A program made the translations under genes and the position numbers. The notes under the pieces were generated by a model that saw only the letters and a program-made list of their open reading frames with translations, was not told the DNA's origin and ran no database searches. A stretch of 64,000 nt of DNA from a virus: the IMG/VR virus record IMGVR_UViG_3300032285_003287, positions 17,718 to 81,717 of that record; one strand, 5' to 3'. Below, piece by piece: positions 780-12,258 of the stretch; positions within the stretch are counted from its first letter, which is position 1, and each line of letters starts with the position of its first letter.

Positions 780-791
780 AATATAAATTTC

Positions 792-864: not shown

Positions 865-868
865 CTAT

Positions 869-944
869 GCGTCGGTAGCTCAGTGGATAGAGCAGGAGTT
901 TTCTAAACTCTTGGTCGCAGGTTCGATCCCTGCCCGATGCGCCA
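869..944 (+). tRNA. tRNA-Arg(TCT)
   Basis: Acceptor GCGTCGG/CCGATGC, G73, CCA; anticodon arm GGAGT-TTTCTAA-ACTCT; D-loop GGATA carries the A20 Arg determinant. Confidence 0.9.
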
Positions 945-949
945 CTCTT

Positions 950-1025
950 GGAACCATAACTCAGCTGGTAGAGTATCGGACTTTTAATCCGTTAGTCGTG
1001 GGTTCGAGCCCCACTGGTTCCACCA
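950..1025 (+). tRNA. tRNA-Lys(TTT)
   Basis: Acceptor GGAACCA/TGGTTCC, A, CCA; anticodon loop CTTTTAA; GGTTCGAGCCC. Confidence 0.92.
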
Positions 1026-1026
1026 T

Positions 1027-1100
1027 GCGTCGTTAGCCAAGCGGTTAGGCGGAGGTCTGCAAAACCTCTTAGATTGGTTCGACTCCAATACGGCGCTCCA
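1027..1100 (+). tRNA. tRNA-Cys(GCA)
   Basis: Acceptor GCGTCGT/ACGGCGC, U73, CCA; anticodon arm GAGGT-CTGCAAA-ACCTC. Confidence 0.92.
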
Positions 1101-1174
1101 TTTGCTTGATAACCAACCACTTACACGACCGGGCCCCGCCGGGCGGCGTAACCCGCTCACCACAAACGAGTTAC
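1098..1174 (-). repeat. composite intergenic element copy A (27-bp box / GC hairpin / 27-bp box), inverted orientation
   Basis: Box 1098-1124 ends ...AACCACTTAC; 23-nt spacer contains CCGGGCCCCGCC; box 1148-1174 is GTAACCCGCTCACCACAAACGAGTTAC. Confidence 0.85.
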
Positions 1175-1188
1175 GCCTATTCCCAACC

Positions 1189-1944
1189 CTATTTCTCTAA
1201 CACAAAACTCCAGTAGCGGCTATCCGTGTAGCCTTGGTTGCGATCCCACCAGATGCAACGGGCAACATAGGAACTAACATTCCACATTTTGCACATTTGA
1301 ATCCAATGACGCTCCATAGCGTGATACTGCTTGCTATCCTTGGACTGATCCAACCCGAATAGCTGGAACAAGTGAGTGTCCATACAAGTAACTTCGGCAA
1401 TAGAAGGATAAACCATCTCAAGTGAGAAGCTAACCTTTGCCATACCAAGGCCAAGAACATTCTTGACCAGACGATCACGAAACTCTACCCAAGATTCGTC
1501 ATCAGCTTTCTTGTAGAAATCAAGATTAGCCCAATAGTGTTCAGCAAACGCAGTAATGAATTTAGTACGATTTTTATGGAGGCCAGCACCACTCTCTACG
1601 ATCCTACGCTCAAGCTCCTCTGGCTTATTGAGCCACTCCCACCAGTTACGGATCATTAGGTATCCGTTAATGTTGGAACGCCATGAGGTATGAACGCTCA
1701 TAAAGGCAAACAACCAACGCTGAAACACTTCGGACGCATTACGAGGAACAACGCTGTCCCAATACTCCGAATACTCCTTGATCTCGCTGTCTAAAATTGA
1801 ATTAAAAAACTTATCTACTTTCGTAGTATTAAGGCTAGGGCGGCTAGTAGGGATGATATGATAAGCATTATCCCAGAATCTTGATTGTTCTGTTGCATTG
1901 TTATTAGGAGTTGAGATTGCGTTGCCGATGAAGTCGAGTTGCAT
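1189..1944 (-). CDS. HhH-GPD superfamily DNA glycosylase-like protein (Ogg/EndoIII-like)
   Basis: HhH-like LVKNVLGLGMAKVSFSLEM followed by catalytic-Asp motif CMDTHL. Confidence 0.7.
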   Translation of the reverse strand: MQLDFIGNAISTPNNNATEQSRFWDNAYHIIPTSRPSLNTTKVDKFFNSILDSEIKEYSEYWDSVVPRNASEVFQRWLFAFMSVHTSWRSNINGYLMIRNWWEWLNKPEELERRIVESGAGLHKNRTKFITAFAEHYWANLDFYKKADDESWVEFRDRLVKNVLGLGMAKVSFSLEMVYPSIAEVTCMDTHLFQLFGLDQSKDSKQYHAMERHWIQMCKMWNVSSYVARCIWWDRNQGYTDSRYWSFVLEK

Positions 1945-2019
1945 GGTGTTGTGGTGTTGTGGGTGAGATCCTATACTCGCATTTTTTGGTCTGCACTACA
2001 AGAACTATTTTTACAATTT

Positions 2020-2096
2020 GTAACCCCTTACATATCAATGACTTATGGCGCCGGGCGGGGAGAGCCTTTGTAACCCCTTAATTAAGAATGACTTAT
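2020..2096 (+). repeat. composite intergenic element copy B (two 27-bp boxes flanking a GC box)
   Basis: GTAACCCCTTACATATCAATGACTTAT, 23 nt (GGCGCCGGGCGGGGAGAGCCTTT), GTAACCCCTTAATTAAGAATGACTTAT; same 27-23-27 geometry as copy A. Confidence 0.85.
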
Positions 2097-2320
2097 AAAA
2101 AAGAGATCCCTGCTCCCCCGTCGGGGACTATCTCTATGAGATTCGGCATTTGCAACTGCACAGGGATTTAGTTGATGTTCCCCCCACCAACCAGAGGATC
2201 TATGTTTCCCCCATAGACAGAGGTTTGCTCTCTGCTTTTTTTCCCGTTGATCGTGCGGGATACCGACTTGAGACGGTTTGAGGATTGCTCGTCGCATTTG
2301 CCCCCAAGTAGCATTACAAC
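2097..2320 (-). ncRNA. candidate multi-hairpin structured RNA, about 225 nt, ending in a U tract
   Basis: Minus-strand stems: ACTTGGGG/TCTCAAGT, TCCCG/CGGGA, GCAGAG/CTCTGT, CTATG/CATAG, GTTGGTG/CATCAAC, and ATCCCTG/CAGGGAT closing three small hairpins; then TTTTTT. Confidence 0.5.
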
Positions 2321-2323
2321 TTT

Positions 2324-2896
2324 CTATACTTTGGCATAACTTTTCCAGATGGTCAAGTCTAAATCTGCAGGAGATAGCTCCCGCTTCCAAGCTTCAGTTA
2401 AAAAGAGTTGCTCAAGAAGACCATACTTCTTTTTAGATGGTGTAGTCTTTGGAGCATCGTAACCCTGCTCACGCAACCACTTTAGAATATGCGTGTCAAG
2501 AACCGCAACCTTAGCTTCTTTCCTAGAGTGTAGAATAAAGAACCTTGCAGTCTTGGGGCCAATACCTTTAACGGACTCCAAATCTTGTACGGTTATGGTC
2601 TTGAGCTTATAAGCAAAATCAACAATACCTTGAAATGCAGTCTTTAGCCTATTGTATTGACCTAGCTTGTGCCGCTTCATTTCTGTCATTAAAGCATTAT
2701 CAATTAGTAATGCATTAATATATTCAAATGGTGAGTGATTGCTATAACCCCTGTCTATTTTTGTGGACAAAAACTCTTCTAGCTTCTGCGCTTGAGTCTT
2801 TGCGGTCTTGCCAGCAACAAGGATGGCAAACATAAGAAACTCTTCTAATTCTGATTCGGTACGATTGAAGTCGGTAATCTTTTCTGGAACGATCAT
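2324..2896 (-). CDS. HhH-GPD DNA glycosylase/AP lyase (Ogg-like)
   Basis: LESVKGIGPKTARFFILHS (HhH with catalytic Lys) plus AVLDTHILKWL; C-terminal DLDLTIW as in Ogg2-type enzymes. Confidence 0.85.
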   Translation of the reverse strand: MIVPEKITDFNRTESELEEFLMFAILVAGKTAKTQAQKLEEFLSTKIDRGYSNHSPFEYINALLIDNALMTEMKRHKLGQYNRLKTAFQGIVDFAYKLKTITVQDLESVKGIGPKTARFFILHSRKEAKVAVLDTHILKWLREQGYDAPKTTPSKKKYGLLEQLFLTEAWKRELSPADLDLTIWKSYAKV

Positions 2897-2962
2897 GGTG
2901 TAGTGTGGTTAAGGTTTATGGGCGCAGGGCATCGAGAGCTACTTCCGCTAACCCTATAAAAT

Positions 2963-3118
2963 TTATTGTTTGATAAGATACTGGTAGAATCGACCCTGAC
3001 GCTTGAGTTGCTGAAGGTAATTCTCATGCGTGACATCATGCATATGCATAAGCAACAGAGAAGGCTTGCGATACTCGAATCCGAGTAGGTTTAGGATGAT
3101 GGTGATAGGGTCTTTCAT
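2963..3118 (-). CDS. hypothetical 51-aa protein, leaderless
   Basis: Hand-translated MKDPITIILNLLGFEYRKPS...YQYLIKQ; ATG is 6 nt after the -10 of a TTGACA-17-TAAACT promoter. Confidence 0.7.
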   Translation of the reverse strand: MKDPITIILNLLGFEYRKPSLLLMHMHDVTHENYLQQLKRQGRFYQYLIKQ

Positions 3119-3124
3119 TTTTAT

Positions 3125-3153
3125 AGTTTATTCTTTTTTGCCATGCGTGTCAA
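3125..3153 (-). promoter_or_regulatory. sigma70-type promoter TTGACA-17-TAAACT (leaderless)
   Basis: -35 at 3148-3153, -10 at 3125-3130, ATG 6 nt downstream. Confidence 0.75.
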
Positions 3154-3366
3154 CTACATCACACAATTATTTTCACTGATAAGTTCCCAAAGTTTCTCTT
3201 GAGCCATTTCCATACCCTTAATAGAGTCATAGTCATCAGAGTGTTTTATATGTTGTCTCATATAATGCTCCATATTCGTTACGACTATCTTCCAATCCAG
3301 TCCCTTGCAGGACGCTTCAAATAGATCTTGTTCTTCGGGTAGGGTGAATTTTAAAATTGCTTCCAT
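3154..3366 (-). CDS. hypothetical phage protein, 70 aa (MEAILKFTLPEEQ...)
   Basis: ATG at 3366 preferred over the TTG start in the track; the N-terminus A.L.F.LPE is of a type common in phage ORFs. Confidence 0.65.
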   Translation of the reverse strand: MEAILKFTLPEEQDLFEASCKGLDWKIVVTNMEHYMRQHIKHSDDYDSIKGMEMAQEKLWELISENNCVM

Positions 3367-3563
3367 GGTCTGCCATTTATAAAACAACTTGAGCAAATAG
3401 TCAATGCGTATTTGCTACCGAGATTTTTAGTAAATAGGCTCGGGATTTACGCCCGATATCCCCCTAAATAGCAATTTCTGGGTATCCCTGTCCCCTAACA
3501 TCAGAAACTAATATCGTTTCTGTGCTACTAACTTGATGGATTGTTTGTATTTCCACTATTATT

Positions 3564-3592
3564 AGTATACTACTATTTGGGATGCTTGTCAA
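3564..3592 (-). promoter_or_regulatory. near-consensus sigma70 promoter TTGACA-17-TATACT
   Basis: -35 at 3587-3592, -10 at 3564-3569; abuts the 27-bp box of element C. Confidence 0.8.
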
Positions 3593-3597
3593 GCACT

Positions 3598-3660
3598 GTA
3601 TCTTGTTGATAATCAGGCACTTACGCGACCGGGCCCCGCCCGGCCTGCCTTGTATTACAT
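3598..3660 (-). repeat. composite intergenic element copy C, inverted orientation
   Basis: Box GTATCTTGTTGATAATCAGGCACTTAC (3598-3624), 4 nt, CCGGGCCCCGCCCGG, then TTGTATTAC. Confidence 0.85.
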
Positions 3661-3730
3661 TACCATATTCCCCGAATACAATGACAGGCGACGAGACCCA
3701 AGAACAGAAGTATTACAATGTATCGGTTCT

Positions 3731-3940
3731 TCATACAGCGTCCTCCGATCCGCCGAAGAGCTGATCCCACTCCTCGCCTGTGATGCCGGTCTTGTAGAAC
3801 TCGCGCTCGTCGGCGTTGAGGTTGGGGAACGCGTTCTGGAGAAGCGCGCCGTTGGCGTAGGCCTCGACTTGGGCCTCGGTAATGTTGAGGTCGAGGGTGC
3901 GGGTGATCTTACTGAAAGGTGAGGTACGGGTTACTTTCAT
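3731..3940 (-). CDS. conserved-type phage hypothetical protein, 69 aa, leaderless
   Basis: G.LLQNAFPNL.ADEREF..TGIT.EEW pattern recalled from phage ORFs; GC-rich codon usage; TATGAT 6 nt before ATG. Confidence 0.75.
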   Translation of the reverse strand: MKVTRTSPFSKITRTLDLNITEAQVEAYANGALLQNAFPNLNADEREFYKTGITGEEWDQLFGGSEDAV

Positions 3941-4016
3941 ATGATCATCATACTACAATTTGCCCATATCACAACAAAAATCTTCTATGAATAAAAATTT
4001 ATTTTTAATAAAAAGC

Positions 4017-4092
4017 TTGACACATCTCTTGTCTTACTATACAATACCGGGCGGGGCCCGGCGCTGTAAGTCCTTGATCTTCAACCACTTAG
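4017..4092 (+). repeat. composite intergenic element copy D with rightward TTGACA-17-TACAAT promoter
   Basis: TTGACA 4017-4022, TACAAT 4040-4045, CCGGGCGGGGCCCGG 4047-4061, box GTAAGTCCTTGATCTTCAACCACTTAG 4066-4092. Confidence 0.9.
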
Positions 4093-4134
4093 GGAGGCGG
4101 CCCAATTGCCGCCCCCCTATGTTAGTTGCCGATG

Positions 4135-4935
4135 TTAGGCAGTCACGATCACTGCCTCGGCCTCCTCCGCCTGTGCCTCGACCGCTTGCTGGGCCGCGAT
4201 GCCTGCCAGAGGATCAAGCAGGGCGTGGAGAGCGTCCGACCGACGAGGCAATGCCATTGCATTACCGCGCAGGACATTGGTGAAGGCGTTATGCAGGCCC
4301 CAGAGGTTGCGCTCGGAACCCCAAACATCGTGTTCGGGTTCGTGCCACTGGGACACCACATCGGCGAGCGCAGTCTTGGAGACCGCGCCGCAACGATAGG
4401 CCTTCACGATCAGATCGTGAGCGTCCCTGTCCGCAATCGTGCAGGACTGGTAGGCCTCGACGCGCTTGGCGTGATTGCCCCATGCGCTGGTGAGCTTACC
4501 GAACGCGCCAGCGAGGAGCATCGGAAGATCGCGCAGGATGAACTTTGTGTGACGACGAGCGATCTTGATCTCGTTGTGGAAGGCGAGGTTGTCGCAGACG
4601 AAAGGCGCGGAGCCAGCGTTGATGCCAGCAGGGAACGACTTGTCGTGCGAGTTACGCAGACCAATCACAGTTCCAACAGTCTCGGCAAGCGAGAAGTTCT
4701 TGAGGCCTCCGACCTGAAACAGGCCAAAGTACCGCTGACCATCACGAGCGAGAGCGTGACGCTCCTGCACGATTTCGAGGCCAGCAGTGTTGACGACTTC
4801 GCGCAGGCCTTCGACCAAGCGCGAGTGAGGGATCGGATGCCACGAATCAGTGGAGTTCGGGGTGATGGAGTTGGCGACCTGCTCCGTGGAGACTTCGTGA
4901 CCGCCGCAGTGTAGTGTGAGGTTCAGTGTTTTCAT
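4135..4935 (-). CDS. DUF932-family protein
   Basis: Motifs SWHPIPH, GLRNSHDKSF, FVCDNLAF, RRHT, RNLWGLHNAFT characteristic of DUF932 (plasmid/phage early genes). Confidence 0.85.
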   Translation of the reverse strand: MKTLNLTLHCGGHEVSTEQVANSITPNSTDSWHPIPHSRLVEGLREVVNTAGLEIVQERHALARDGQRYFGLFQVGGLKNFSLAETVGTVIGLRNSHDKSFPAGINAGSAPFVCDNLAFHNEIKIARRHTKFILRDLPMLLAGAFGKLTSAWGNHAKRVEAYQSCTIADRDAHDLIVKAYRCGAVSKTALADVVSQWHEPEHDVWGSERNLWGLHNAFTNVLRGNAMALPRRSDALHALLDPLAGIAAQQAVEAQAEEAEAVIVTA

Positions 4936-5018
4936 GACTCTCTGATCATCCTACTTTTTGGCGTTCGGTACAATACCTTTTTCACAATTTTTTGCGATTT
5001 CTTTTTGTGCGATTTCTG

Positions 5019-5177
5019 TTGACAGTCCGTAGAGCTAGTGTTTACGCGGCTCCATGGCGACCTTTGTCTACAGCCTACCCCCTACCTACAGAGCCAGTAT
5101 CTATGCGGGTCTACAGCGTAAGACAAACCGACCGGGCGGGGCCCGGCTGCGTAAGTCGCTGATATTCAACAACTTAT
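5019..5177 (+). repeat. composite intergenic element copy E (long form)
   Basis: TTGACA 5019; two AG(A/G)GCYAGTRT(T/C)TAYGCGG sub-repeats; GTAAGACAA 5118-5126; GC hairpin 5132-5146; box GTAAGTCGCTGATATTCAACAACTTAT 5151-5177. Confidence 0.9.
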
Positions 5178-5300
5178 GCAGATCCGGTACTGTAATGTTA
5201 AGTTATCGCATTTTCGTTTGTTTTTTTTATTTGTTTTTATTGAAGTGAATTGCAAGCGCTACTAACAAGCATATTAGTATGAAGGTCATGGCGCACGATG

Positions 5301-5984
5301 TTAAGCGGTTGCGATAACAAAGCCGGAATCGTCCTTTTTTCCTTTGCCCTTGGCAACGAGGCCGACGATCACGCCTTTCGGGTCGAGGAATCGGAGATCC
5401 GTTTCGTCACCATTCACGACAGGCTTGCCGAGATAGGTTTCGGGAAGTTTGCCAGCAAACACGGCGGCGATGTTTCCCGTTGTCTTGGCGAATAGTTCGA
5501 CAAGGTGTTGATTGTTCTCCTTGCGTGAGAAAGTCAGGTGATAGTTTTCGGGAAGCTCGCCGTTAATGAAAGCAATCATGCGCTTGGGATTTGGCGTGTA
5601 GTCATAAAAGGTGACTTCAGGAAAAGCCCTCATGTCGATCAGATTTTCCCACGGCAGATCGGAGAGGACATTCAACCGCACGGCAAGTTTCATGCTTTTC
5701 TTTTTCGCGTTCTTAATGGCAAGAGAGAGTTCCTTTTTAAGTTGGGCAAGGAAAGCGTCTTTCTGTTCTATGAAGTAACGGGATTTTTTGAATCGTGCCT
5801 CTTGAACATTAGAAAACGCGCCCATGCCCGAAGTGTTGAGACAAGCGGCGGCGCAACCTTCCGAAGCGTGAGAGCAAAAGTTTTTTCCCGAAAGATTGTA
5901 GGGAATGAGAGACAGGCCAAGCGTGAGCCAACCGAGTTTTTCGCCTTTGCGGATTTTTGTGTTGTTTGGTGATAGGAGTTTCAT
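5301..5984 (-). CDS. Gp88-like (gene product 88 family) putative Fe-S/radical-SAM-like protein
   Basis: N.K..K...C..AS.GCAAACL Cys triad, RLNVLSD, FYDYT, NYHLTFS, GD.TDLRFLD, VGL.AKG; start taken at ATG 5984. Confidence 0.8.
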   Translation of the reverse strand: MKLLSPNNTKIRKGEKLGWLTLGLSLIPYNLSGKNFCSHASEGCAAACLNTSGMGAFSNVQEARFKKSRYFIEQKDAFLAQLKKELSLAIKNAKKKSMKLAVRLNVLSDLPWENLIDMRAFPEVTFYDYTPNPKRMIAFINGELPENYHLTFSRKENNQHLVELFAKTTGNIAAVFAGKLPETYLGKPVVNGDETDLRFLDPKGVIVGLVAKGKGKKDDSGFVIATA

Positions 5985-6025
5985 GGTTCTATGATTTTGA
6001 TTATTTTTTGCCGTAGTGTCAACGA

Positions 6026-6532
6026 TCAATTTTCTGGATCCCAATCAGAGGATCCTTCACGGACAGCCATGCCAGCAGGTTCCGTATCCGTTGCCCAACC
6101 CATAAAGTTTTCGCGTGTGATTGCGTCGAGCGTGTCCTGTGCCGCTTGCAGGGCATCAGTCTTGAACTTTTCCGACTTGCCTTTGTATTGCTTGCTGATC
6201 GGAGAATCTTGCCAGAGGCGAATGTTTTCCCATGTAAGACCACGGATGATGTCGGCTTCTGTCGTGAGAAAGTATGCAAAGCTCTCTCCGATGTAGTGAA
6301 GGAACCCATCACCAAGCGTTTGTCCGTTGCTCACCCATCCTCCCTCGTCGTCAATGTTGCTTGTGACATTTGCGCCAGCGATGCCGAGATTAAAGTAGCG
6401 GTTGAAAGATCGTTCAATCTGTGCGCGAGTGCCAGAGAGTCCGAAGGCAAGGCCGTTGCCGTATGAGCTAATGACTTCAGAGGCGAAGGCGTTGGAGGCG
6501 GTGCTAGTGGTTTGGGTTGTGTTGTTTGTCAT
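6026..6532 (-). CDS. hypothetical protein, 168 aa, leaderless
   Basis: ATG 6 nt after TCGCAA-17-TAGTTT. Confidence 0.75.
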   Translation of the reverse strand: MTNNTTQTTSTASNAFASEVISSYGNGLAFGLSGTRAQIERSFNRYFNLGIAGANVTSNIDDEGGWVSNGQTLGDGFLHYIGESFAYFLTTEADIIRGLTWENIRLWQDSPISKQYKGKSEKFKTDALQAAQDTLDAITRENFMGWATDTEPAGMAVREGSSDWDPEN

Positions 6533-6610
6533 GGTTCAAAACTATCCGATGCCGTCACGAATTGCGAGAAGTTTTTTTCGTTTGGGCAAAACTTTTTTAT
6601 GAGAAACTTG

Positions 6611-6769
6611 TTGACAGCCTGCAGGCCCAGTATTTATGCGGCTCCGCGGGCTAGTTCGTCTAGAGCCGGTAGGGTAGCCGCAGAGCCAGTATTTATCAGC
6701 CTTCGACATTGTATGACAACTCGCCGGGCGGGGCCCGGTGCTGTAAGTCGTTGATTTGTAGTGACTTAG
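6611..6769 (+). repeat. composite intergenic element copy F (long form)
   Basis: TTGACA 6611; sub-repeats CAG(G/A)(C/G)CCAGTATTTAT; TTGTATGACAA 6709-6719; GC hairpin 6724-6738; box 6743-6769 contains the stop codon of the neighbouring gene. Confidence 0.9.
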
Positions 6770-7197
6770 AACGATTGAGTCTCTCGGAGGTATGTTAGGC
6801 GGTTATTTGTCATTAAGTAGACCTCTTCTAGCCTCTGAAGTGGACGATTTAATCCTAGGTCGTGAATTGATCCGTTTATGATAGCAAAAGCGTGTTTATT
6901 AGTTGCGACATAGTAGCGACCAGTTGGGTTCTCTTTAATGAACCTCTGAATCGTGATACTTTTGTAACGCTTTTTCTTGTATGTTATGCCATATTCCTTT
7001 TTAGCATATTTAAGTAATTTTTTTGGATCAAATCCATGACCATTTTTTCTACCAGCTTCGCGGCCTATCTTGTGGGCATACTCGTAAGGTATGCCAGCAC
7101 TTGTCGCCAAGGCTCGGATTGTGCAGTCTCTTTGCTCGGCAATTCCAGACTTGAACCTTCCAGAGTCGGAGCAGATTGTTCGTGATTTTAAATCCAT
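6766..7197 (-). CDS. hypothetical protein with DCxxRA...H motif (possible papain-like/C39-like fold)
   Basis: RDCTIRALA...Y...HAFAIING.IHD; Cys/His dyad-like arrangement. Confidence 0.55.
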   Translation of the reverse strand: MDLKSRTICSDSGRFKSGIAEQRDCTIRALATSAGIPYEYAHKIGREAGRKNGHGFDPKKLLKYAKKEYGITYKKKRYKSITIQRFIKENPTGRYYVATNKHAFAIINGSIHDLGLNRPLQRLEEVYLMTNNRLTYLRETQSF

Positions 7198-7344
7198 TTT
7201 TAGAAAGTTGGAGCCCTCCTGAGTGTTTTACGACTTCCTTTTAACTCAGACCTCCAGTGTAGTCGAGAGGCCAGCGGGACTTTGCTGGTTTGGCGTTGGT
7301 GCGTTCCCTATTGCGGGCTTCGTACACCTTTATCACCAAAGATT

Positions 7345-7611
7345 TTAGGCGATCAGTTCAAACCTAACGATGCGATCCAAGCGGAACCTGCGGATGTCAT
7401 CCACGGCAGGGACATAGCAGGTGATTCCCTCGCCAGCGGGATTCTTCGTGCCACGATCCTCCTTGTAGAAGAACTTGGCAAACGGACGAGACACCTGATA
7501 CTCTTTCGGCTCAAAGCGGTTAGACTCTGCCTTGTAGACGATCTTGTAGGTATTGAGAAGGCCCAGCTTGTAGGCGATTTTCGTGAAGAACAGGTTAAGG
7601 TTGGTTTTCAT
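7345..7611 (-). CDS. small WYL-like/SH3-barrel protein
   Basis: C-terminal IRRFRLDRI matches the WYL-domain R.FRLDRI signature; no HTH. Confidence 0.6.
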   Translation of the reverse strand: MKTNLNLFFTKIAYKLGLLNTYKIVYKAESNRFEPKEYQVSRPFAKFFYKEDRGTKNPAGEGITCYVPAVDDIRRFRLDRIVRFELIA

Positions 7612-7680
7612 TGTTTTTGTGTTTTGGGTTTGTTGTTGTTGTTTAGTGTGATTCTATTTTTACAATTTTTGGGCAAGATG

Positions 7681-7890
7681 TCAATAGTCGATTTTGATAT
7701 TTTTTGCCGCCCTGTATGCCGAGATCATTTCACCGATGCGGTTGCGGCTCATCTTTGTCATGCCGCTAGTGATTCCCCAGTAGCGTTTGGTTTCCTTGTG
7801 TGCTTTAATCTCTCCCTGAATGGCAAGGATCAGATAGGTGCGAATGTTGCAGACATTGGTGAAGTTCAGTGTGGTGTTCTTATTTTTCAT
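7681..7890 (-). CDS. hypothetical protein, 69 aa, leaderless
   Basis: MKNKNTTLNF...; ATG 6 nt after TTTACA-17-CATAAT. Confidence 0.7.
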   Translation of the reverse strand: MKNKNTTLNFTNVCNIRTYLILAIQGEIKAHKETKRYWGITSGMTKMSRNRIGEMISAYRAAKNIKIDY

Positions 7891-7934
7891 GGTATGATTA
7901 TGAGGGTTAAGGGTTGATTTGTAAAGCGTCAAAA

Positions 7935-8069
7935 TTACTTTTCGGTAACTTTTTTCTGTGCTTGTTTCCAAGCATTCCAGCGAGCTTTGCGGGAAGCCCA
8001 TTTTTGAGCTTCACGATTGTAACGAGCGATCTCCCACTCTTGGGAGGTTTGAGTATTCTTATTGTTCAT
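7935..8069 (-). CDS. basic Trp-rich miniprotein, 44 aa, leaderless
   Basis: Hand-translated MNNKNTQTSQEWEIARYNREAQKWASRKARWNAWKQAQKKVTEK; TACGCT 6 nt upstream. Confidence 0.65.
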   Translation of the reverse strand: MNNKNTQTSQEWEIARYNREAQKWASRKARWNAWKQAQKKVTEK

Positions 8070-8147
8070 GCTGTAAGCGTATCATGGACGCACAAAAAAA
8101 TCGAGAAAAAAATGCGGCTAGGTGAAACTTTTTTTTAACGAAAAGTG

Positions 8148-8305
8148 TTGACAGCTGCAGGGCTAGTGTTTATGCGGGTCTACGGGCTACTTCGTCTAGA
8201 GGCCACAGGGTAGCTCTAGAGGCCCATACAATGCGGATCCGCAAGGGGCGACCGACTGACCGGGCGGGGCCCGGCTCTGTAAGTCGTTGATTAGTAGGCT
8301 TTTAT
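8148..8305 (+). repeat. composite intergenic element copy G (long form)
   Basis: TTGACA 8148; sub-repeat CAGGGCTAGTGTTTATGCGGGTC; GC hairpin 8260-8274; box GTAAGTCGTTGATTAGTAGGCTTTTAT 8279-8305 overlaps the last codons of the neighbouring gene. Confidence 0.9.
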
Positions 8306-8548
8306 GAAGATTGGAGTGTATTCGCCCATGTACGCGCCCTCGATGTTAAATTCAAAGTATTCCCATGCTTCTTCTTCATTCATTCCTTGGGATATTAGCT
8401 TTTTGATTATTTTATTGACATCATATGCCAGCACACGATTGAGACCACAGCGATAGGCTGTGCCGATAATCGCCTTATCAAACCCATCAACCTTAAGTGC
8501 GTCTGGATCAACAGAGTCCAGCACTTGCTTTAAGATATCAGCTCTCAT
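8291..8548 (-). CDS. conserved-type phage hypothetical protein, 85 aa
   Basis: DGFD.AIIG...Y....I...L...GM..EEA.EYFEFNI.GAYMGE.TPIF pattern recalled from aquatic phages. Confidence 0.8.
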   Translation of the reverse strand: MRADILKQVLDSVDPDALKVDGFDKAIIGTAYRCGLNRVLAYDVNKIIKKLISQGMNEEEAWEYFEFNIEGAYMGEYTPIFIKAY

Positions 8549-8702
8549 AGTCACCTCCGATATCAAAGCGGTCTTCGTATTGCTGTTCTAGGTAGCGGTC
8601 GGGCTGGATTTCATCCATGTCCCTAGGGGTGTGACCTAGCTCATGCTCGTCGTTGTAGATTTCGGGCTGGTTTTCGTCTTCGGGGTCTGTGATGGTGAGC
8701 AT
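8538..8702 (-). CDS. highly acidic miniprotein, 54 aa
   Basis: MLTITDPEDENQPEIYNDEHEL...GGDYES; 18 D/E versus 3 R and no K. Confidence 0.65.
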   Translation of the reverse strand: MLTITDPEDENQPEIYNDEHELGHTPRDMDEIQPDRYLEQQYEDRFDIGGDYES

Positions 8703-8733
8703 AATCTGATTAAAAGATTTTTTGGTTATGGTG

Positions 8734-8958
8734 TCAAGCACCGATAGTTTCACGAAACACTTGAAAGCCACGAACGATATGCGAGATATCACCAGTAGCG
8801 TTGCAGAGTGCATCTGCGATACTGATCGCGCAGTCGCGCTCAAGCTGAAGCTGAAGCAACTTCTTCATTACCTCCCTCGGAGGCATACCGGCAGTATGCT
8901 CCTCAAGAGCGTTAAGCATCAGATCAAAGTCTGCTTTGGTGAATTGTTTCTTAATCAT
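8734..8958 (-). CDS. hypothetical protein, 74 aa
   Basis: MIKKQFTKADFDLML...; start overlaps the upstream stop (TAATG). Confidence 0.65.
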   Translation of the reverse strand: MIKKQFTKADFDLMLNALEEHTAGMPPREVMKKLLQLQLERDCAISIADALCNATGDISHIVRGFQVFRETIGA

Positions 8959-9224
8959 TATTTTACTCCTAGGGATTTGATGGTTTTGTTGAACTCCTGT
9001 TCCTGCTTGATCCGATATGCCTCTGGATCTTGAAACGGAGTCTGTGCGTAGGAGACATCGTTCCAATGAAAGGAAGGGACGCCCCATGAGTTAGCCTCGT
9101 AGGTTGCGGCACTATGCTTGACAGCAAGGTGCGCCCAGTAGAGGGAGGTTGCGAGTGAGTCGATCACACCAAAGGTGAGGGCGACGATTGCGATGATACC
9201 GATTTGCTTTGTGGTGTTGTTCAT
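8958..9224 (-). CDS. hypothetical membrane-anchored protein, 88 aa
   Basis: MNNTTKQIGIIAIVALTFGV hydrophobic N-terminus. Confidence 0.65.
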   Translation of the reverse strand: MNNTTKQIGIIAIVALTFGVIDSLATSLYWAHLAVKHSAATYEANSWGVPSFHWNDVSYAQTPFQDPEAYRIKQEQEFNKTIKSLGVK

Positions 9225-9255
9225 ATTCTTATTGAATGCGGTGTTGGTATTTTTA

Positions 9256-9513
9256 TTAGTTGTGGGGCTTGTTGGCTTCCTCACCAAAATAGTTTGCGAT
9301 GCCTTCATCCCAGTTTTCGGCAACGGAATCGCATAGCCTTTCCAAAAGCTCACGGAGCCTTGCGACCTCGTTGGTTTTCTCGGCGAGTTCGCGTTCTAGT
9401 TCTTCGGCATGGTTAGCCATGTATACATAGGCTTCATAATCGGTTCTTAAATTACAAAAGGCTTTGTTTCTTTCGACATCAGTCCTCGGCGTTGGTGTGG
9501 TTTCGGGGTTCAT
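9256..9513 (-). CDS. hypothetical coiled-coil protein, 85 aa
   Basis: TPRTD...A.ELERELA motif common in phage ORFs. Confidence 0.7.
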   Translation of the reverse strand: MNPETTPTPRTDVERNKAFCNLRTDYEAYVYMANHAEELERELAEKTNEVARLRELLERLCDSVAENWDEGIANYFGEEANKPHN

Positions 9514-9540
9514 AGAGTAATTAAAATTCTTTTTTATTGT

Positions 9541-9675
9541 TCAGTCAACCCAAATGTTCGGGTTGCCATGCTCTTGCACGATGGCTTCCAGTTCGTCGAG
9601 CCAAGCCTCGTATTCAGAGGCGTAAGCGGCGAGATCTTCAGCGGCGAATTGTTTAGGGTCGATTAGTAGTTCCAT
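9541..9675 (-). CDS. acidic miniprotein, 44 aa, leaderless
   Basis: MELLIDPKQFAAEDLAAYASEYEAWLDELEAIVQEHGNPNIWVD; 11 D/E versus 1 K; TATGCT 6 nt upstream. Confidence 0.7.
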   Translation of the reverse strand: MELLIDPKQFAAEDLAAYASEYEAWLDELEAIVQEHGNPNIWVD

Positions 9676-9750
9676 GATTAGAGCATAGCACCGGCATCGT
9701 AGATTACAACACTTTTTTTTGAATTTTTTTCGTGCCATAAAGAAAAAAGC

Positions 9751-9844
9751 TTGACAGCGCAATGGTGTGCATGGTACAATTGTGTAAGACAACCGCCGCC
9801 GGGCTGGGCCGGGCGCTGTAAGCTGTTGATCTTCAGCTACTTAT
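9751..9844 (+). repeat. composite intergenic element copy H with rightward TTGACA-18-TACAAT promoter
   Basis: TTGACA 9751, TACAAT 9775-9780, GTAAGACAA 9784-9792, degenerate GC box 9799-9813, box GTAAGCTGTTGATCTTCAGCTACTTAT 9818-9844. Confidence 0.9.
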
Positions 9845-9845
9845 G

Positions 9846-10010
9846 TTAATGCTTGTAACCCCATGTGACTGAGGCAGTTATCATTGCGGCAGAAACCCAG
9901 TAACTAACATCACCAAACTTGCCAGCAAACGCCCATCTTGTGGCGTTGATAACATAGAGGGACATAATGACATAGTTAAAGAAGCGAGGATCAGTGATGA
10001 ATTTGTACAT
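9846..10010 (-). CDS. small membrane protein, 54 aa
   Basis: MYKFITDPRFFNYVIMSLYVINATRWAF...YWVSAAMITASVTWG; two hydrophobic segments. Confidence 0.65.
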   Translation of the reverse strand: MYKFITDPRFFNYVIMSLYVINATRWAFAGKFGDVSYWVSAAMITASVTWGYKH

Positions 10011-10011
10011 A

Positions 10012-10134
10012 TTATTTTTGGTATTTTTCTTTTCGCCTGTAGATTTTTTTACTAGGAACAGCGCGTTGTACAGGTGCATACGGCTGTCTTACCTTGATAT
10101 CTTTCAGTTGTATCGCAAATCGTTCGGTTTTCAT
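10012..10134 (-). CDS. basic miniprotein, 40 aa (ArfA-like C-terminal motif)
   Basis: Hand-translated MKTERFAIQLKDIKVRQPYAPVQRAVPSKKIYRRKEKYQK; fills the gap between neighbours exactly. Confidence 0.6.
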   Translation of the reverse strand: MKTERFAIQLKDIKVRQPYAPVQRAVPSKKIYRRKEKYQK

Positions 10135-10135
10135 T

Positions 10136-10366
10136 CTATTCTGCTGGGCAGTTCTCCCAGTACCAGTCGTTGTACATTTCCTTCCATTCTGCCTTGAAGT
10201 AGTCCATCTGTGCGGCGGTGTAGCTGAACAGATAGTTCAGACGAGCGACAATGGGAGCGATGTCGTTCTCTGTGAACGATTGCTCCATCGTCTGCCAGAG
10301 GGAGTTCTCGTTCATGGAACGGAGGATGAGTTCTTGTGTGGTGTTGTTGGTGATGTCAATTTTCAT
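10136..10366 (-). CDS. hypothetical protein, 76 aa, leaderless
   Basis: ATG 6 nt after TCGACA-17-CATACT. Confidence 0.75.
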   Translation of the reverse strand: MKIDITNNTTQELILRSMNENSLWQTMEQSFTENDIAPIVARLNYLFSYTAAQMDYFKAEWKEMYNDWYWENCPAE

Positions 10367-10404
10367 GTTTAGAGTATGAGTGTTGAGGGTTGATTTGTCG
10401 AGAA

Positions 10405-10692
10405 CTATTTTTTGAGTTGCATCTCTAATTGACGGATTTTTTGCTCAAGCTCTTTCGTGTGTCTACGATAGAAAGCCAGATCCTGTTCATAGGTTCCAAC
10501 CGCAAAAATCAGATTTTCGATTTGCTGATCTTTGGTTCCCGACATGATGATCGGATCGTCGAAGCGTTCCTTGTTCATTCGCTTCTGTTCCCTGTCCATC
10601 AGATCGGACTGGATTCTTTCGTGTCTAGCTTCTGGCGTTTCACCGCCACAGACGACTTTGAAGCTACGGAGTGGGTATTTGTATGATCTCAT
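10405..10692 (-). CDS. hypothetical coiled-coil protein, 95 aa
   Basis: ATG ORF in operon context. Confidence 0.65.
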   Translation of the reverse strand: MRSYKYPLRSFKVVCGGETPEARHERIQSDLMDREQKRMNKERFDDPIIMSGTKDQQIENLIFAVGTYEQDLAFYRRHTKELEQKIRQLEMQLKK

Positions 10693-10696
10693 ATTT

Positions 10697-10831
10697 TTAT
10701 TTCCTTTCGATGTAGTTGTTTAGATTGTTGATGACTGCTTGATTCGCCTTGGTGATCTCTTCCAGCTTTTTAGCAAAGGCAAGGAGGCGAACTTCTAGGG
10801 GATTCTGTTTGGGGGCTTTTCTTCTTTTCAT
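10697..10831 (-). CDS. basic miniprotein, 44 aa, leaderless
   Basis: Hand-translated MKRRKAPKQNPLEVRLLAFAKKLEEITKANQAVINNLNNYIERK; TTGCAA-16-CAGAAT upstream. Confidence 0.6.
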   Translation of the reverse strand: MKRRKAPKQNPLEVRLLAFAKKLEEITKANQAVINNLNNYIERK

Positions 10832-10883
10832 GATTCTATTCTGTCAGGTTTTCCGATTATTGCAAGATTTATTTTTTCTTTTT

Positions 10884-11039
10884 TTATTCTTCCTCTGGTT
10901 CAAACTCTGCCCATTCTCCGCAATCCTTGCAGAGAGCGATGAAGCCATTCTGTTCTAGAACGGGTGATAGTGGGCTATTCGTTGCGCCACAGCAGTTGCT
11001 GACTAGCTTTACCTCTTTGAGTGTTTCTTTATCTTTCAT
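10884..11039 (-). CDS. zinc-ribbon miniprotein, 51 aa, leaderless
   Basis: SNCCGA...CKDCGEWAEF; ATG 6 nt after TTGTGT-17-TATGCT. Confidence 0.75.
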   Translation of the reverse strand: MKDKETLKEVKLVSNCCGATNSPLSPVLEQNGFIALCKDCGEWAEFEPEEE

Positions 11040-11116
11040 GCTATGAGCATAGCCTAGAACACTGAAAAACACAAGATCTTTTTTTCGTTTGTGTGAATTT
11101 TTTTTGACGATTGTGC

Positions 11117-11211
11117 TTGACGGCGAGGCGGCTTTCTGTTATACTACCCTGTAAGACAACCGCCGCCAGGCGGGGCCCGGCGCTGTAAGTTGTTGATACT
11201 GAGCTACTTAC
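11117..11211 (+). repeat. composite intergenic element copy I with rightward TTGACG-17-TATACT promoter
   Basis: -35 11117-11122, -10 11140-11145, GTAAGACAA 11151-11159, GC box 11166-11180, box GTAAGTTGTTGATACTGAGCTACTTAC 11185-11211. Confidence 0.9.
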
Positions 11212-11359
11212 GCATTCTGCCTTTGCCACACTCTGGCGTATATGTTATATACGCGGGTTTCGTACGCCTTATTGCTACCTAACCTGATACCGCGTCGACG
11301 TAGCGTTTCCGCTACGTGACGCTTCAGCTGTATCTGTTGGACTATTGTCATACAAGCTA

Positions 11360-11518
11360 TTAGTGATGGCGATGATTGCTAGTGCCTGCGAAGTGGCCCG
11401 ATGTGCCACGACTGCCACGACCAGAGATGCCGCTGTTGTGCGTCTTGGCCTGTGATGTAGCAGGGATGAGGATAGCGAGGGCGAGTGAGATGATTGCGAT
11501 GTGTGCTGTGCGGTTCAT
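11360..11518 (-). CDS. secreted Gly/Ser/His-rich peptide, 52 aa
   Basis: MNRTAHIAIISLALAILIPATSQA|KTHNSGISGRGSRGTSGHFAGTSNHRHH; Sec-like signal peptide. Confidence 0.6.
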   Translation of the reverse strand: MNRTAHIAIISLALAILIPATSQAKTHNSGISGRGSRGTSGHFAGTSNHRHH

Positions 11519-11543
11519 ATGGTATGTTGTGTTGGTTGTTGTA

Positions 11544-11633
11544 TTAGTGGTTGCAGATTTGGTCAGCGAAGTAGCAGATGCCGATGAAGCAAGCGATGTT
11601 GCCTAGTGCTAGGAGTGAGACAATGATCTTCAT
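11544..11633 (-). CDS. hydrophobic peptide, 29 aa
   Basis: MKIIVSLLALGNIACFIGICYFADQICNH; tightly packed between neighbours. Confidence 0.5.
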   Translation of the reverse strand: MKIIVSLLALGNIACFIGICYFADQICNH

Positions 11634-11637
11634 GTGA

Positions 11638-11751
11638 TTACTTGGAGAGAATCTCAAGAGTGATGACGATGAGACCGACAGCCGACAGCGATAGGAAGCC
11701 GAAGGCGAGGAACGATGCGATGATGAGGACTGACTCGATGTGGTGTTTCAT
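11638..11751 (-). CDS. single-TM peptide, 37 aa
   Basis: MKHHIESVLIIASFLAFGFLSLSAVGLIVITLEILSK; CA-rich leader. Confidence 0.55.
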   Translation of the reverse strand: MKHHIESVLIIASFLAFGFLSLSAVGLIVITLEILSK

Positions 11752-11769
11752 GTGTTGTTGTGTTGTGGG

Positions 11770-11916
11770 TTAGCGTGACTGAAGAAAGGTCTTTGCCTCA
11801 AGCAAGGCGTTGCTTGCGTAGTAGTAAGCCTTCATGCGAAGCGTGTTGCCTAGACGAGCGTGGCGGCATGACTGATTGTAGAAGCTCTGTGAGAGAGTGT
11901 AGATTGTGGTGATCAT
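11770..11916 (-). CDS. hypothetical protein, 48 aa, leaderless
   Basis: MITTIYTLSQSFYNQ...; ATG 6 nt after TTGACA-17-CATACT. Confidence 0.7.
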   Translation of the reverse strand: MITTIYTLSQSFYNQSCRHARLGNTLRMKAYYYASNALLEAKTFLQSR

Positions 11917-11954
11917 GGTTAGAGTATGAGTGAATGTGGTTATTGTGTCAACGA

Positions 11955-12068
11955 TTATTTCTTTGGGATCCAGAAGCCCTTGTCCCACAAGCTACGCTTG
12001 ACCTCTGCCTGCTTCTTGAGTTCGATTCTGCGAAGCTCGATGATTCGCTGTTTGGTTTCTTTGTTCAT
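11955..12068 (-). CDS. basic miniprotein, 37 aa, leaderless
   Basis: MNKETKQRIIELRRIELKKQAEVKRSLWDKGFWIPKK; ATG 6 nt after TTGACA-16-TATAAT. Confidence 0.7.
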   Translation of the reverse strand: MNKETKQRIIELRRIELKKQAEVKRSLWDKGFWIPKK

Positions 12069-12105
12069 GGTGTGATTATAGAGATTGAGGTGATTGTGTC
12101 AACGA

Positions 12106-12258
12106 TTATTTGATGCAGATTGGAAGTGCGCCGTATGGTGAAGGATTGGCGATGATGTAGGCGATCACCTTCTCGACCTGCTTCCTGTTCGCCTCAGCGA
12201 TGAGGAGATTACGAGCGACCATCTTCTGTTCTAGCGTTTGCTTGTTCTTATCTTTCAT
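12106..12258 (-). CDS. hypothetical protein, 50 aa, leaderless
   Basis: MKDKNKQTLEQKMVARNLLIAEANRKQVEKVIAYIIANPSPYGALPICIK; ATG 6 nt after TTGTGT-17-TAGGAT. Confidence 0.7.
   Translation of the reverse strand: MKDKNKQTLEQKMVARNLLIAEANRKQVEKVIAYIIANPSPYGALPICIK

Follow-up and report, generated by a model that had tools for sequence, protein, structure and literature searches.

A 46-bp dyad-and-box element bordering early transcription units of a large uncultured phage

Introduction

PeSL elements of T4-type phages combine a short, conserved, near-consensus sigma70 promoter with a GC stem-loop, are repeated between small early genes of these virulent phages and are concentrated in a plastic region (PMC2839356, PMC4122927). 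Insertions, deletions and replacements between relatives are joined at PeSLs, and no dedicated recombinase is involved (PMC2839356, PMC4122927). The stem-loops terminate transcription effectively (PMC2839356). Stoperators of Cluster A mycobacteriophages (e.g. L5) are 13-bp asymmetric sites bound by the known monomeric immunity repressor of temperate phages (PMC9283540). REPs are elements of host chromosomes that number in the hundreds and have a GTAG head; RAYT Y1 transposases are associated with them (PMC3333891, PMC2817692).

Here, we describe a 46-bp composite of a GC-rich dyad and an IHF-consensus-type box, about a dozen copies of which lie at the edges of early transcription units of an uncultured large phage. 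The window analysed is a 64,000-nt stretch that comprises bases 17718-81717 of an 81.7-kb contig.

Results

The window holds eight clean copies of the element and one decayed copy (B), at all nine positions listed in an earlier sequence-only reading (Table 1). A pattern of 23 specified bases (dyad, GTAA and TTGA) gave 8 matches with up to three mismatches, compared with 0.00 expected from 100 dinucleotide shuffles, and copy B was recovered with a profile despite its decay (nhmmer E = 1.3e-7). Three further copies are located upstream of the window, at contig positions 12600, 15020 and 16661. All 12 copies of the contig are confined to 16.4 kb, and pattern and profile scans of the other ~65 kb, including the rest of the window, found none, as the same reading had reported for the window. 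The geometry that it described is also retained, with a 4-nt spacer, a 27-bp box with conserved TAA/TTA ends, a 27-23-27 arrangement in copies A and B, inverted copies A and C, and stop codons within boxes F and G and 1 nt beyond box H. Copy B departs from this description in one respect: its boxes are direct repeats rather than inverted, and its orientation is ambiguous.

Table 1. Copies of the element and the early gene array (window coordinates)
Feature	Class	Coordinates	Strand	Components	Surroundings
Copy A	double-box	1098..1174	-	box 1098-1124, spacer, dyad 1129-1143, spacer, second box 1148-1174	flanked by tRNA-Cys (+) and a 251-aa gene (-, 3' end)
Copy B	decayed	2020..2096	ambiguous	box 2020-2046, degenerate dyad 2051-2065, direct-repeat box 2070-2096	followed on the minus strand by the promoter of the 251-aa gene
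Copy C	co-directional	3598..3643	-	dyad 3629-3643, box 3598-3624	69-aa gene (3731-3940, -) before; minus-strand promoter TTGACA-N17-TATACT (3592-3564) after
Copy D	P type	4017..4092	+	promoter TTGACA-N17-TACAAT 4017-4045, one base, dyad 4047-4061, box 4066-4092	antisense to DUF932 gene 4135-4935 (-)
Copy E	Q type	5019..5177	+	TTGACA 5019, Q motifs 5029-5054 and 5088-5113, dyad 5132-5146, box 5151-5177	Q motifs belong to repeat families D3 and D4
Copy F	Q type	6611..6769	+	TTGACA 6611, dyad 6724-6738, box 6743-6769	terminal TTA of box is the stop codon (6766-6768) of gene 6766-7197 (-)
Copy G	Q type	8148..8305	+	TTGACA 8148, dyad 8260-8274, box 8279-8305	stop codon 8291-8293 of a minus-strand gene in box
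Copy H		9751..9844	+	promoter TTGACA-N18-TACAAT 9751-9780, then TGTAAGACAA, dyad 9799-9813, box 9818-9844	minus-strand stop codon 9846-9848, one base beyond box
Copy I		11117..11211	+	promoter TTGACG-N17-TATACT 11117-11145, then TGTAAGACAA, dyad 11166-11180 (CCAGG variant), box 11185-11211	
Early gene array		1189..12258	-		divided into units by elements

Five related IMG/VR contigs have as many as 14 copies apiece, and the copies of the three larger records among them occupy a single 16-20 kb region; G001, for example, has 13 copies, all at 2.1-18.6 kb of 138 kb. The element was not found in 185,579 prokaryote genomes and has no match in Rfam. It is probably lineage-specific, and the phage host probably belongs to Verrucomicrobiota. 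The phage is of the long-tape-measure type and looks virulent, given that it has rIIA and rIIB and that no integrase was found.

The orientation of the element follows transcription for every copy with a readable orientation in the four larger records, and this rule persists through a block inversion. Two classes are observed. Co-directional copies follow genes, including rIIA and rIIB, and precede the next promoter; each is succeeded by a sigma70-type promoter, with the exception of copy A at a convergent junction. Promoter-linked copies have their own sigma70-type promoter, which is predicted to fire into the element and antisense to the early genes. Six window copies belong to this class, and the sequence-only reading had missed both the orientation rule and these promoters. 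In at least six P-type copies, a single nucleotide separates the end of the -10 hexamer from the dyad, and the Q modules contain two direct repeats located 59 bp apart. Each genome is predicted to contain 6-9 strong antisense promoters. Many genes of the minus-strand array also have their own sigma70-type, near-leaderless promoter.

Across 56 copies, 13 of the 15 dyad positions and the TAA, TTGA and TTA positions of the box are near-invariant, although orthologous proteins of these phages are only 52-92% identical. Purifying selection appears to act on the sequence of the element and not on its fold. The box has the symmetric form TAA-N4-TTGAT-W-ATCAR-N4-TTA and lies exactly 4 bp from the dyad. 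Its invariant positions TAA-N4-TTGAT equal the IHF consensus, and the left half-site is the reverse complement of WATCAANNNNTTR (strict in 29 of 56 copies, relaxed in 37). Each half had been described as an approximate IHF match; the left half fits exactly, better than claimed. The earlier suggestion that the box is a protein-binding site is strengthened by this very good consensus and by a conservation pattern like that of a protein site.

The fold of the element is not conserved. At its variable mirror positions, the box pairs as often as shuffling predicts (z -3.4 to +1.7), without covariation across the 56 copies, and box folding averages -3.7 kcal/mol, with one-third of the copies weaker than -2 kcal/mol. 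At stem pair 3/13 of the dyad, G-C occurs in 26 copies, C-C in 16 and G-G in 13, and neither the compensated C-G nor a G-U pair is observed. Because half of the copies carry this uncompensated C/G change in the GC stem, the dyad reads CCSGG-N5-CCSGG, with the two pentamers one helical turn apart. The perfect dyad is stable as an RNA hairpin (-10.3 kcal/mol), and stems with a C-C or G-G mismatch reach -4.6 and -7.1 kcal/mol. In contrast, compensatory changes are present in the gene-specific hairpin that adjoins an element at the rIIA 3' end. The view of hairpin and palindrome as conserved folds is therefore not upheld, and the box lacks an attC-like fold. The dyad and the box are both predicted to be double-stranded protein-binding sites. 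G-U-compatible mismatches in the box number 96 on the transcribed-sense strand and 52 on the other (~2:1), a weak hint of RNA-level pairing.

The proposal that the element partitions the early region into units agrees with a comparison of four related phage genomes, in which gene gain, loss, inversion and translocation are joined within the 15-bp dyad. Between G000 and G002, the homology partner switches at 18822/18846 and around 12600. Copy A is the inversion/translocation junction relative to G002, and the boxes flanking the dyad swap partners (X with Y in G002; X with Z and W with Y in G000). In G003, a single dyad with both boxes takes the place of the 69-aa cassette that lies between the inverted copies C and D, and homology ends at 21361 and restarts at 21764. 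Of 223 homology-block ends, 16 fall no more than 5 bp from a dyad, versus 3.2 expected; this enrichment is partly trivial, since diverged spacers adjoin a conserved island. Many cassette differences between relatives break away from the elements.

Domain searches of the whole contig and three relatives (one 89% complete) identified no Phage_integrase, Resolvase or Y1_Tnp domain, which extends to these records the earlier remark that no recombinase is visible in the window. No phage HU/IHF gene was found either. Pfam gave no recognisable DNA-binding domain for 44 small proteins encoded in the region. A search for a giant or T7-type RNA polymerase domain gave no match, although its control also gave no response. 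No replication initiator or topoisomerase is linked to the element sites.

Discussion

We tentatively favour a PeSL-like interpretation in which the element is a composite cis-regulatory site of duplex DNA that bounds early units transcribed by host RNA polymerase and doubles as a recombination joint. Proteins would read the conserved core, a CCSGG pair plus an IHF-type bending site, as duplex DNA, and the bound complex may form a polar barrier to RNA polymerase coming from the dyad side. At co-directional copies, the barrier would end the upstream message just ahead of the next promoter. At promoter-linked copies, the element would cover roughly positions +1 to +46 relative to a strong sigma70 promoter placed back-to-back with an early-gene promoter, and the barrier may act there as an operator or immediate block; the antisense promoter would therefore not run into the neighbouring early gene. 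The genome comparison shows recombination joining cassettes at the dyad, which is the longest near-identical stretch of all copies and is alike on both strands. On this interpretation, the shuffling would result, as with PeSLs, from general or microhomology-based recombination without a dedicated recombinase. The purpose of the 6-9 antisense promoters is not really explained by this interpretation.

Two alternatives place the function in RNA. It is rather unlikely that the element is a strict PeSL-type terminator, with a box-aided GC hairpin as an intrinsic or factor-assisted terminator or RNA-stabilising end and with copies homogenised by recombination. Its position ahead of the next promoter is the classic one for a terminator, all copies would be transcribed in one sense through upstream read-through or their own promoter, and both the stable perfect dyad and the G-U excess on the sense strand are consistent with an RNA hairpin. 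However, the hairpin lacks a downstream U-tract in both orientations, whereas the phage does have a canonical terminator hairpin with a T-run elsewhere (14729-14694). The uncompensated mid-stem mismatches, the lack of box covariation and a sequence invariant beside diverged proteins also argue against a terminator. Moreover, P-type RNA cannot form the hairpin because transcription should start inside it. These mismatches and the untranscribed P-type hairpin also weigh against a nut/put-like antitermination site, at which a nascent-RNA hairpin with CGCT-GTAAG would load a factor that makes RNA polymerase termination-resistant. The location near promoters or directly after a first gene resembles that of nutL and nutR, a 15-nt hairpin followed by a CGCT-starting motif recalls boxB/boxA, and one protein binding all copies would predict a uniform sequence. 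Such a site is nevertheless highly improbable, as a fresh promoter directly after co-directional copies makes read-through pointless and antisense copies would drive a processive polymerase against the early genes.

The two alternatives that act on DNA are both improbable. In dedicated site-specific cassette exchange, an unrecognised phage or host recombinase would cut and join the DNA at the dyad, the box would have an architectural role, and promoter-bearing gene cassettes would be inserted and excised. A specific site beside an IHF site, as in the element, is typical of recombination and transposition complexes. Junctions lie within a dyad that is short, at 15 bp, for ordinary homologous recombination; the flanking boxes swap partners, and the 69-aa cassette is found between two dyads or is absent with a single dyad, like one-site circle integration. 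However, no recombinase domain was found in the four records, one of them 89% complete, a pure recombination site needs neither transcription-following orientation nor the promoter linkage of most copies, many cassette differences break elsewhere, and T4 PeSLs reach the same outcome without a recombinase (PMC2839356). Of the integron-like cassette system first suggested, the partition into units is supported, and an integron-like machinery is not visible in the records searched. Alternatively, promoter-linked copies could prime R-loops or origins, or the element could be a topological insulator of the gyrase/IHF type, comparable to REP-BIME or the strong gyrase site of Mu, and take up supercoils at convergent transcription. 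The E. coli RIP/RIB type of BIME is likewise built from a GC palindrome next to an IHF site (PMC3333891). Early-gene and antisense transcription would converge precisely at the promoter-linked copies, the dyad is G-rich on its RNA-like strand, and the direct repeats of the Q modules resemble iterons. The element-sense strand has G>C and T>A in the region in 4/4 genomes, with the genes on the other strand, but this skew may merely mirror amino-acid usage. Co-directional copies lack their own promoter, 6-9 origins in 8-10 kb would be unusual, and no topoisomerase or initiator is linked to the sites, the neighbouring GHKL-like protein of 739 aa being homologous to rIIA.

Comparison with known systems

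In the hairpin promoters of N4 virion RNA polymerase, a stem of 5-7 bp carries a purine loop of 3 nt, and a conserved sequence follows downstream at a constant distance. The element shares this layout, but its neighbouring promoters are all of the sigma70 type and its stem mismatch is uncompensated. Integron attC sites are active when folded as single-stranded DNA, conserve their structure while their sequence varies, and need the IntI tyrosine recombinase. Like the element, they are imperfect palindromes at cassette 3' ends that may overlap stop codons, and their cassettes vary among relatives; the element instead conserves its sequence but not its structure, and the searches found no integrase. 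REP/BIME sequences, especially the IHF-binding RIP/RIB, similarly combine GC-rich extragenic palindromes with an IHF consensus, lie at 3' ends of and between convergent transcription units and are rearrangement hot spots (PMC3333891, PMC2817692), whereas the element is absent from the prokaryote genomes searched and no Y1 transposase was found with it.

Stoperators resemble the element in being sequence-specific duplex sites at promoters and in short intergenic gaps across a region, with an orientation that strictly tracks transcription and a proposed block of both initiation and elongation (PMC9283540). They differ from it in that the element is a 46-bp composite, it has no known repressor and its phage looks virulent. 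Unlike in PeSLs, the dyad of the element keeps its sequence invariant but not its stem, an IHF-type box is attached at rigid spacing, and half of the copies face against the genes, with the promoter firing into the element. Crossovers at the element map in the dyad, compared with between the -10 and the ATG for PeSLs, and it belongs to another phage lineage. With its promoters, GC dyad, repetition between small early genes in a plastic region and recombinase-free joining of relatives, the closest known parallel of the element is nonetheless the T4-like promoter/stem-loop, an analogy that the sequence-only reading had mentioned in passing.

Distribution of the element

The element is a 46-bp repeat built from a 15-bp GC dyad, a 4-bp spacer and a 27-bp box. 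The nine copies listed by the sequence-only reading (copies A–I) are all present in the window, between positions 1098 and 11211. A search with a dyad + GTAA + TTGA pattern, allowing up to three mismatches, returned eight matches versus 0.00 expected, and the decayed copy B was still picked up by the profile. The source is a single 81.7-kb IMG/VR virus contig (53% complete by the CheckV estimate), and a whole-contig scan located three extra copies directly upstream of the window. The proposed confinement to the early region is borne out by profile and mismatch scans of the whole contig, with no additional copy in the remaining ∼65 kb by mismatch search or nhmmer. The observation also extends to relatives, as an exact-pattern scan of IMG/VR identified the element in six other contigs. 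Three larger relative records contain 13–14 copies each, all within one 16–20 kb stretch, and the copies in the related record G001 (138 kb, 89% complete) span 2.1–18.6 kb. A megablast search of the region against 50,697 phage records returned no match.

Genes occupy the minus strand from window position 1189 to about 13550 and the plus strand in the part of the contig preceding the window and again beyond about 15280. The minus-strand array includes homologs of DUF932, GP88 and Ogg-like proteins (PHROG and Pfam matches). Every copy is intergenic, although in some the box extends over the final codons of a gene or the tRNA-Cys 3′ end. Early-gene 3′ ends reach or enter the right arm of the box, with stops at 6766, 8291 and 9846. 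The tRNA genes and tRNA-like sequences of the region are listed in the table.

The contig probably derives from a virulent, long-tailed phage of Verrucomicrobiota, the host being a lead only. This reading is based on the rIIA and rIIB homologs, the length of the tape-measure protein (2119 aa), an integrase search with no match, a low use of Shine-Dalgarno sequences with many starts that look leaderless, and a pilin-like ORF. This ORF is nearest to Verrucomicrobiota clusters, and its host search against genome_contigs matched the prepilin signal peptide only. In the whole contig, CCAGG occurs five times and CCTGG four times versus Markov expectations of about 48 and 44; CCWGG is thus strongly avoided but CCSGG is not, which suggests that a host restriction system of the EcoRII/Dcm type exerts pressure. 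A 12-nt tandem repeat at the contig end probably explains why the assembly stops there.

Orientation classes and associated promoters

The copies fall into a co-directional class, located after genes, and a promoter-linked class, antisense to early genes. Co-directional copies are often preceded by ..CTAACAT, and within 30–110 bp downstream of them come an A/T-rich UP-like tract (AAATTGTAAAAAT) and the sigma70-type promoter of the next gene. Copy A, at a convergent junction, is the exception and has no following promoter. The rIIA and rIIB homologs are each bracketed by co-directional copies in all four related genomes (G000, the contig under study, and its relatives G001–G003). These two proteins were identified through PHROGs, and PDB sequence searches with them gave no match.

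In copies D, H and I, as in the relatives, the promoters next to the dyad conform to TTGACA-N17/18-TAYAMT. The promoter-linked promoters lie back-to-back with near-leaderless early-gene promoters, about 40–45 bp apart, and amount to six to nine strong predicted antisense promoters per genome. All copies of readable orientation in the four larger records are placed such that transcription would enter from the dyad side. This rule holds even though the rIIA-rIIB block of G000 is inverted relative to G001–G003. Because the inverted block carries its own elements, orientation tracks genes and not map position; an orientation set by a fixed map landmark (for example, an origin or a terminus) is rejected, as the elements move with the block.

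A second conserved motif, YAGAGCCAGTRTTTATGCGGSTCYRC, in the long modules could be a regulator site or an iteron-like repeat. The 9–10-mer TGTAAGACAA has CTGTAAG in common with the dyad-proximal edge of the box and, judged from this resemblance, may be a third half-site. The strand antisense to early genes (element-sense) at 4047–11200, and its equivalents in G001–G003, is richer in G than in C and in T than in A in each of the four genomes (GC skew +0.04 to +0.08; AT skew −0.09 to −0.17); replication direction, antisense transcription or amino-acid usage could be the cause.

Coordinates of element copies and neighboring features (window positions unless the contig or L001, the handle for contig coordinates, is named)
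Feature	Location	Description
Co-directional copies	contig 12600, 15020, 16661; window A, C	positioned after a gene
Copy B	window	same location class as co-directional copies, but decayed and of ambiguous orientation
Promoter-linked copies	window D–I	pointing against early genes; own sigma70-type promoter and UP-like tract before each, on the strand of the copy
P type		TTGACA-N6-TTGTCTTACAG-TATACT, one base, dyad
H and I form		-10 hexamer, TGTAAGACAA, dyad after a further 6 nt
Q type (E, F, G)		TTGACA and about 110 nt holding two CCAGTGTTTATGCGG copies 59 bp apart
9–10-mer TGTAAGACAA (or complement TTGTCTTACA)	4029–4038, 9783–9792, 11152–11161; also in relatives	within P-type promoter spacer, or just past -10 hexamer in H, I and Q types
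Motif YAGAGCCAGTRTTTATGCGGSTCYRC	5029–5054, 5088–5113, 6621–6646, 6680–6705, 8157–8182	twice per long module, 59 bp apart; first copy at fixed distance from TTGACA
rIIA homolog	L001:12725–14944, upstream of window	739 aa; PHROG 612, 5e-112
rIIB homolog	L001:15092–15997, upstream of window	301 aa; PHROG 609, 3e-72
HNH/tRNA insertion	L001:16060–16660	free-standing HNH endonuclease gene (16178–16657) and tRNA
tRNA genes	704–1100	five
tRNA-Cys	1027–1100	encoded CCA end overlapped by box A (1098–1100)
tRNA-like sequences	L001 about 16070–16140 and 17575–17660	two more, upstream
Gene-specific GC hairpins	4093–4118; L001:14962–14990	directly at DUF932 and rIIA 3′ ends, beside the element
Intrinsic terminator	14694–14729 (−)	textbook form, 16-bp stem then TTTTTTT, after Hsp20-like gene
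12-nt tandem repeat (ACGCCGACTGCT and variants)	∼63880–64000	contig end, inside open reading frame

Conservation of the dyad and box as proposed duplex DNA sites

The consensus of 56 copies is g-CCSGGCGGGGCCSGG-Cgcy-G-TAA-gtcg-TTGAT-ww-tcAR-nnac-TTA-y. None of the 56 copies departs from the consensus at TAA, at the second T of the TTGAT pair TT or at the TT of the closing TTA; the GA, A22 and the final A are near-identical, and the four-base stretch separating TAA from TTGAT is freely variable. Orthologous proteins are 52–92% identical, yet the element core is conserved, and the 46-bp site as a whole is conserved far more strongly than the surrounding genes.

The IHF consensus is WATCAANNNNTTR. 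On the other strand, the left half of the box reads WATCAA-N4-TTA and corresponds to this consensus, with 29 strict and 37 relaxed matches among the 56 left half-sites. Little or no variation is seen in TAA-N4-TTGAT-W outside the N4 positions, which are free. The right half mirrors the left more weakly and has four strict matches. The box is a candidate IHF-type site, and the conservation pattern of the 46-bp site points to an IHF-type bender and a second factor as readers of duplex DNA. No PF00216 (HU/IHF) gene was found in the four phage records (G000–G003), and the 44 small proteins of the region contain no recognisable DNA-binding domain.

We read the dyad and the box as sequence-specific duplex-DNA sites with a constant 4-bp gap between them. 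Watson-Crick pairing across the variable mirror positions of the box is at the level of partner shuffles (z −3.4 to +1.7), so the palindrome is attributed to two inverted half-site consensuses and not to selection for pairing. Box folding averages only −3.7 kcal/mol, with values weaker than −2 kcal/mol in one-third of the copies. Pair 3/13 of the GC stem is G-C 26 times, C-C 16 times and G-G 13 times, with neither the compensated C-G form nor a G-U pair there in any copy. The perfect form of the dyad folds with −10.3 kcal/mol, compared with −4.6 and −7.1 kcal/mol for the two variant forms. The changes are limited to central C-to-G or G-to-C exchanges, as expected were each arm recognised as a CCSGG pentamer, the two pentamers lying 10 bp apart. 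In contrast to the dyad, which exhibits no compensatory changes, the gene-specific hairpin after rIIA, beside the element, differs between genomes in a compensated manner (GGTGGAGC/GCTCCAC to GGTGAGGC/GCCTCACC).

Rearrangements joined at the dyad

Gene-family maps and blastn comparisons of G000 with G001–G003 place the junctions of both large and small rearrangements at or in the dyad (contig 12600, 16661, 18846 and 21361/21764), in agreement with the synteny map. In G002, family 06 is followed by a dyad and a 251-aa gene; in G000, family 06 is followed by a dyad and rIIA, and the 251-aa gene is joined through a dyad to the tRNAs. The homology partner switches at 18822|18846 and around 12600, and the flanking boxes swap accordingly. 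A cassette with a 69-aa gene is located between the inverted copies C and D in G000–G002. In G003, it is replaced by a single dyad between box D and box C, and homology stops at 21361 and resumes at 21764. An insertion in G000 relative to G002 contains the HNH endonuclease gene and a tRNA, and homology restarts precisely with the first base of the dyad at 16661, at its 5′ edge. Small cassettes of families 62, 71, 73, 75, 76, 100, 102, 109 and 111 are placed differently between elements in the four genomes. Among homology blocks of at least 300 bp, 16 of 223 ends lie within 5 bp of a dyad versus 3.2 expected, a 5-fold enrichment that is partly trivial in that a conserved island borders diverged spacers.

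Proposed mechanism and alternatives

The element may be a protein-bound polar boundary or operator whose dyad doubles as a crossover point. This is the mechanism that we prefer, tentatively; both its roadblock step and its proteins are putative. An RNA-level terminator or stabiliser is a less probable role. G-U-compatible mismatches in the box are about twofold more frequent on the transcribed-sense strand (96) than on the other strand (52), a weak counter-signal to the duplex-site reading. RNAalifold gave no convincing consensus structure for the 110-nt Q modules, and an Rfam scan of window 1–13000 with E values up to 1 returned tRNAs only, with no curated covariance model matching the element. 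A canonical intrinsic terminator is rejected, as no U-tract follows the dyad in either orientation and a consensus terminator scan yields only marginal tails at E and I. The terminator after the Hsp20-like gene indicates that the phage uses canonical terminators, unlike the element.

Dedicated site-specific cassette exchange, with the GC dyad as the crossover site of an unrecognised phage- or host-encoded machinery, is unlikely. It would accommodate an IHF-type architectural site beside the dyad and cassettes with promoters that are inserted, excised and inverted in a virulent phage, and it would amount to an integron-like system that lacks tyrosine, serine and HUH recombinases. Phage_integrase (PF00589), Resolvase (PF00239) and Y1_Tnp (PF01797) domains were all absent from G000–G003, which are 35–89% complete. 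The cassette boundaries and the protein site of the sequence-only reading are retained, but its integron-like machinery is not; an attC-like folded site is likewise rejected, since sequence is conserved, pairing equals the shuffle expectation and there is no covariation. A topological or replication element is about as improbable as dedicated exchange, and nut-like antitermination has very little probability.

The element offers a defined, testable handle on the insulation and reshuffling of early transcription units in an uncultured large-phage lineage, and it is linked to a group of strong predicted antisense promoters that is itself unusual. Should a protein that binds it or a dedicated recombination activity come to light, the element could be used as a compact polar insulator or for cassette exchange.

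Comparison with known systems

The element shows the opposite pattern to attC, in which a fold of paired arms and extrahelical bases is conserved and the sequence is variable, and no IntI-type tyrosine recombinase was found (PF00589 absent from G000–G003, 35–89% complete). An N4-type hairpin promoter is rejected: every neighboring promoter is of sigma70 type, and neither a virion polymerase nor one of T7 type turned up, in a T7-type search whose control did not respond and which is therefore uninformative. RIP/RIB-type REP-BIMEs (PMC3333891) resemble the element in that an IHF site accompanies a GC palindrome. REP/BIMEs are repeats of host chromosomes, present in high copy number and linked to a RAYT (Y1) transposase. 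Exact-pattern scanning of 185,579 prokaryote genomes (genome_contigs) returned no match, which rules out a REP taken from a host; a REP/RAYT element is rejected on this absence and on that of a Y1 transposase. The operators and stoperators of L5-like mycobacteriophages (PMC9283540) are similar in that one site occurs at promoters and in intergenic gaps, oriented with transcription; there, a cognate sequence-specific repressor is proposed to stop both initiation and elongation. The element has the same placement, and its link between orientation and transcription survives the rIIA-rIIB inversion in G000.

The promoter-early stem-loop (PeSL) cassettes of T4-type phages, described as "mobile regulatory cassettes" (PMC2839356, PMC4122927), share with the element a conserved promoter with a GC dyad, an intergenic location in a plastic early region, a virulent phage background and junctions at the element with no recombinase found. 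Both combine a sigma70-like early promoter with a stem-loop repeated in intergenic gaps, and the indels and replacements of relatives are joined at these sites. Unlike a PeSL, the element has a core that behaves like a protein site in duplex DNA and bears an IHF-type box, and half of its copies are antisense, with a promoter directed into them. The PeSL stem-loop is an effective terminator that runs with the genes, a role that the element may share; no U-tract or covariation is seen in it, its stem mismatch is uncompensated and half of its copies are antisense to the genes. The element extends the PeSL idea of regulatory cassettes as recombination joints beyond T4-type phages, with the junctions at a 15-bp dyad.
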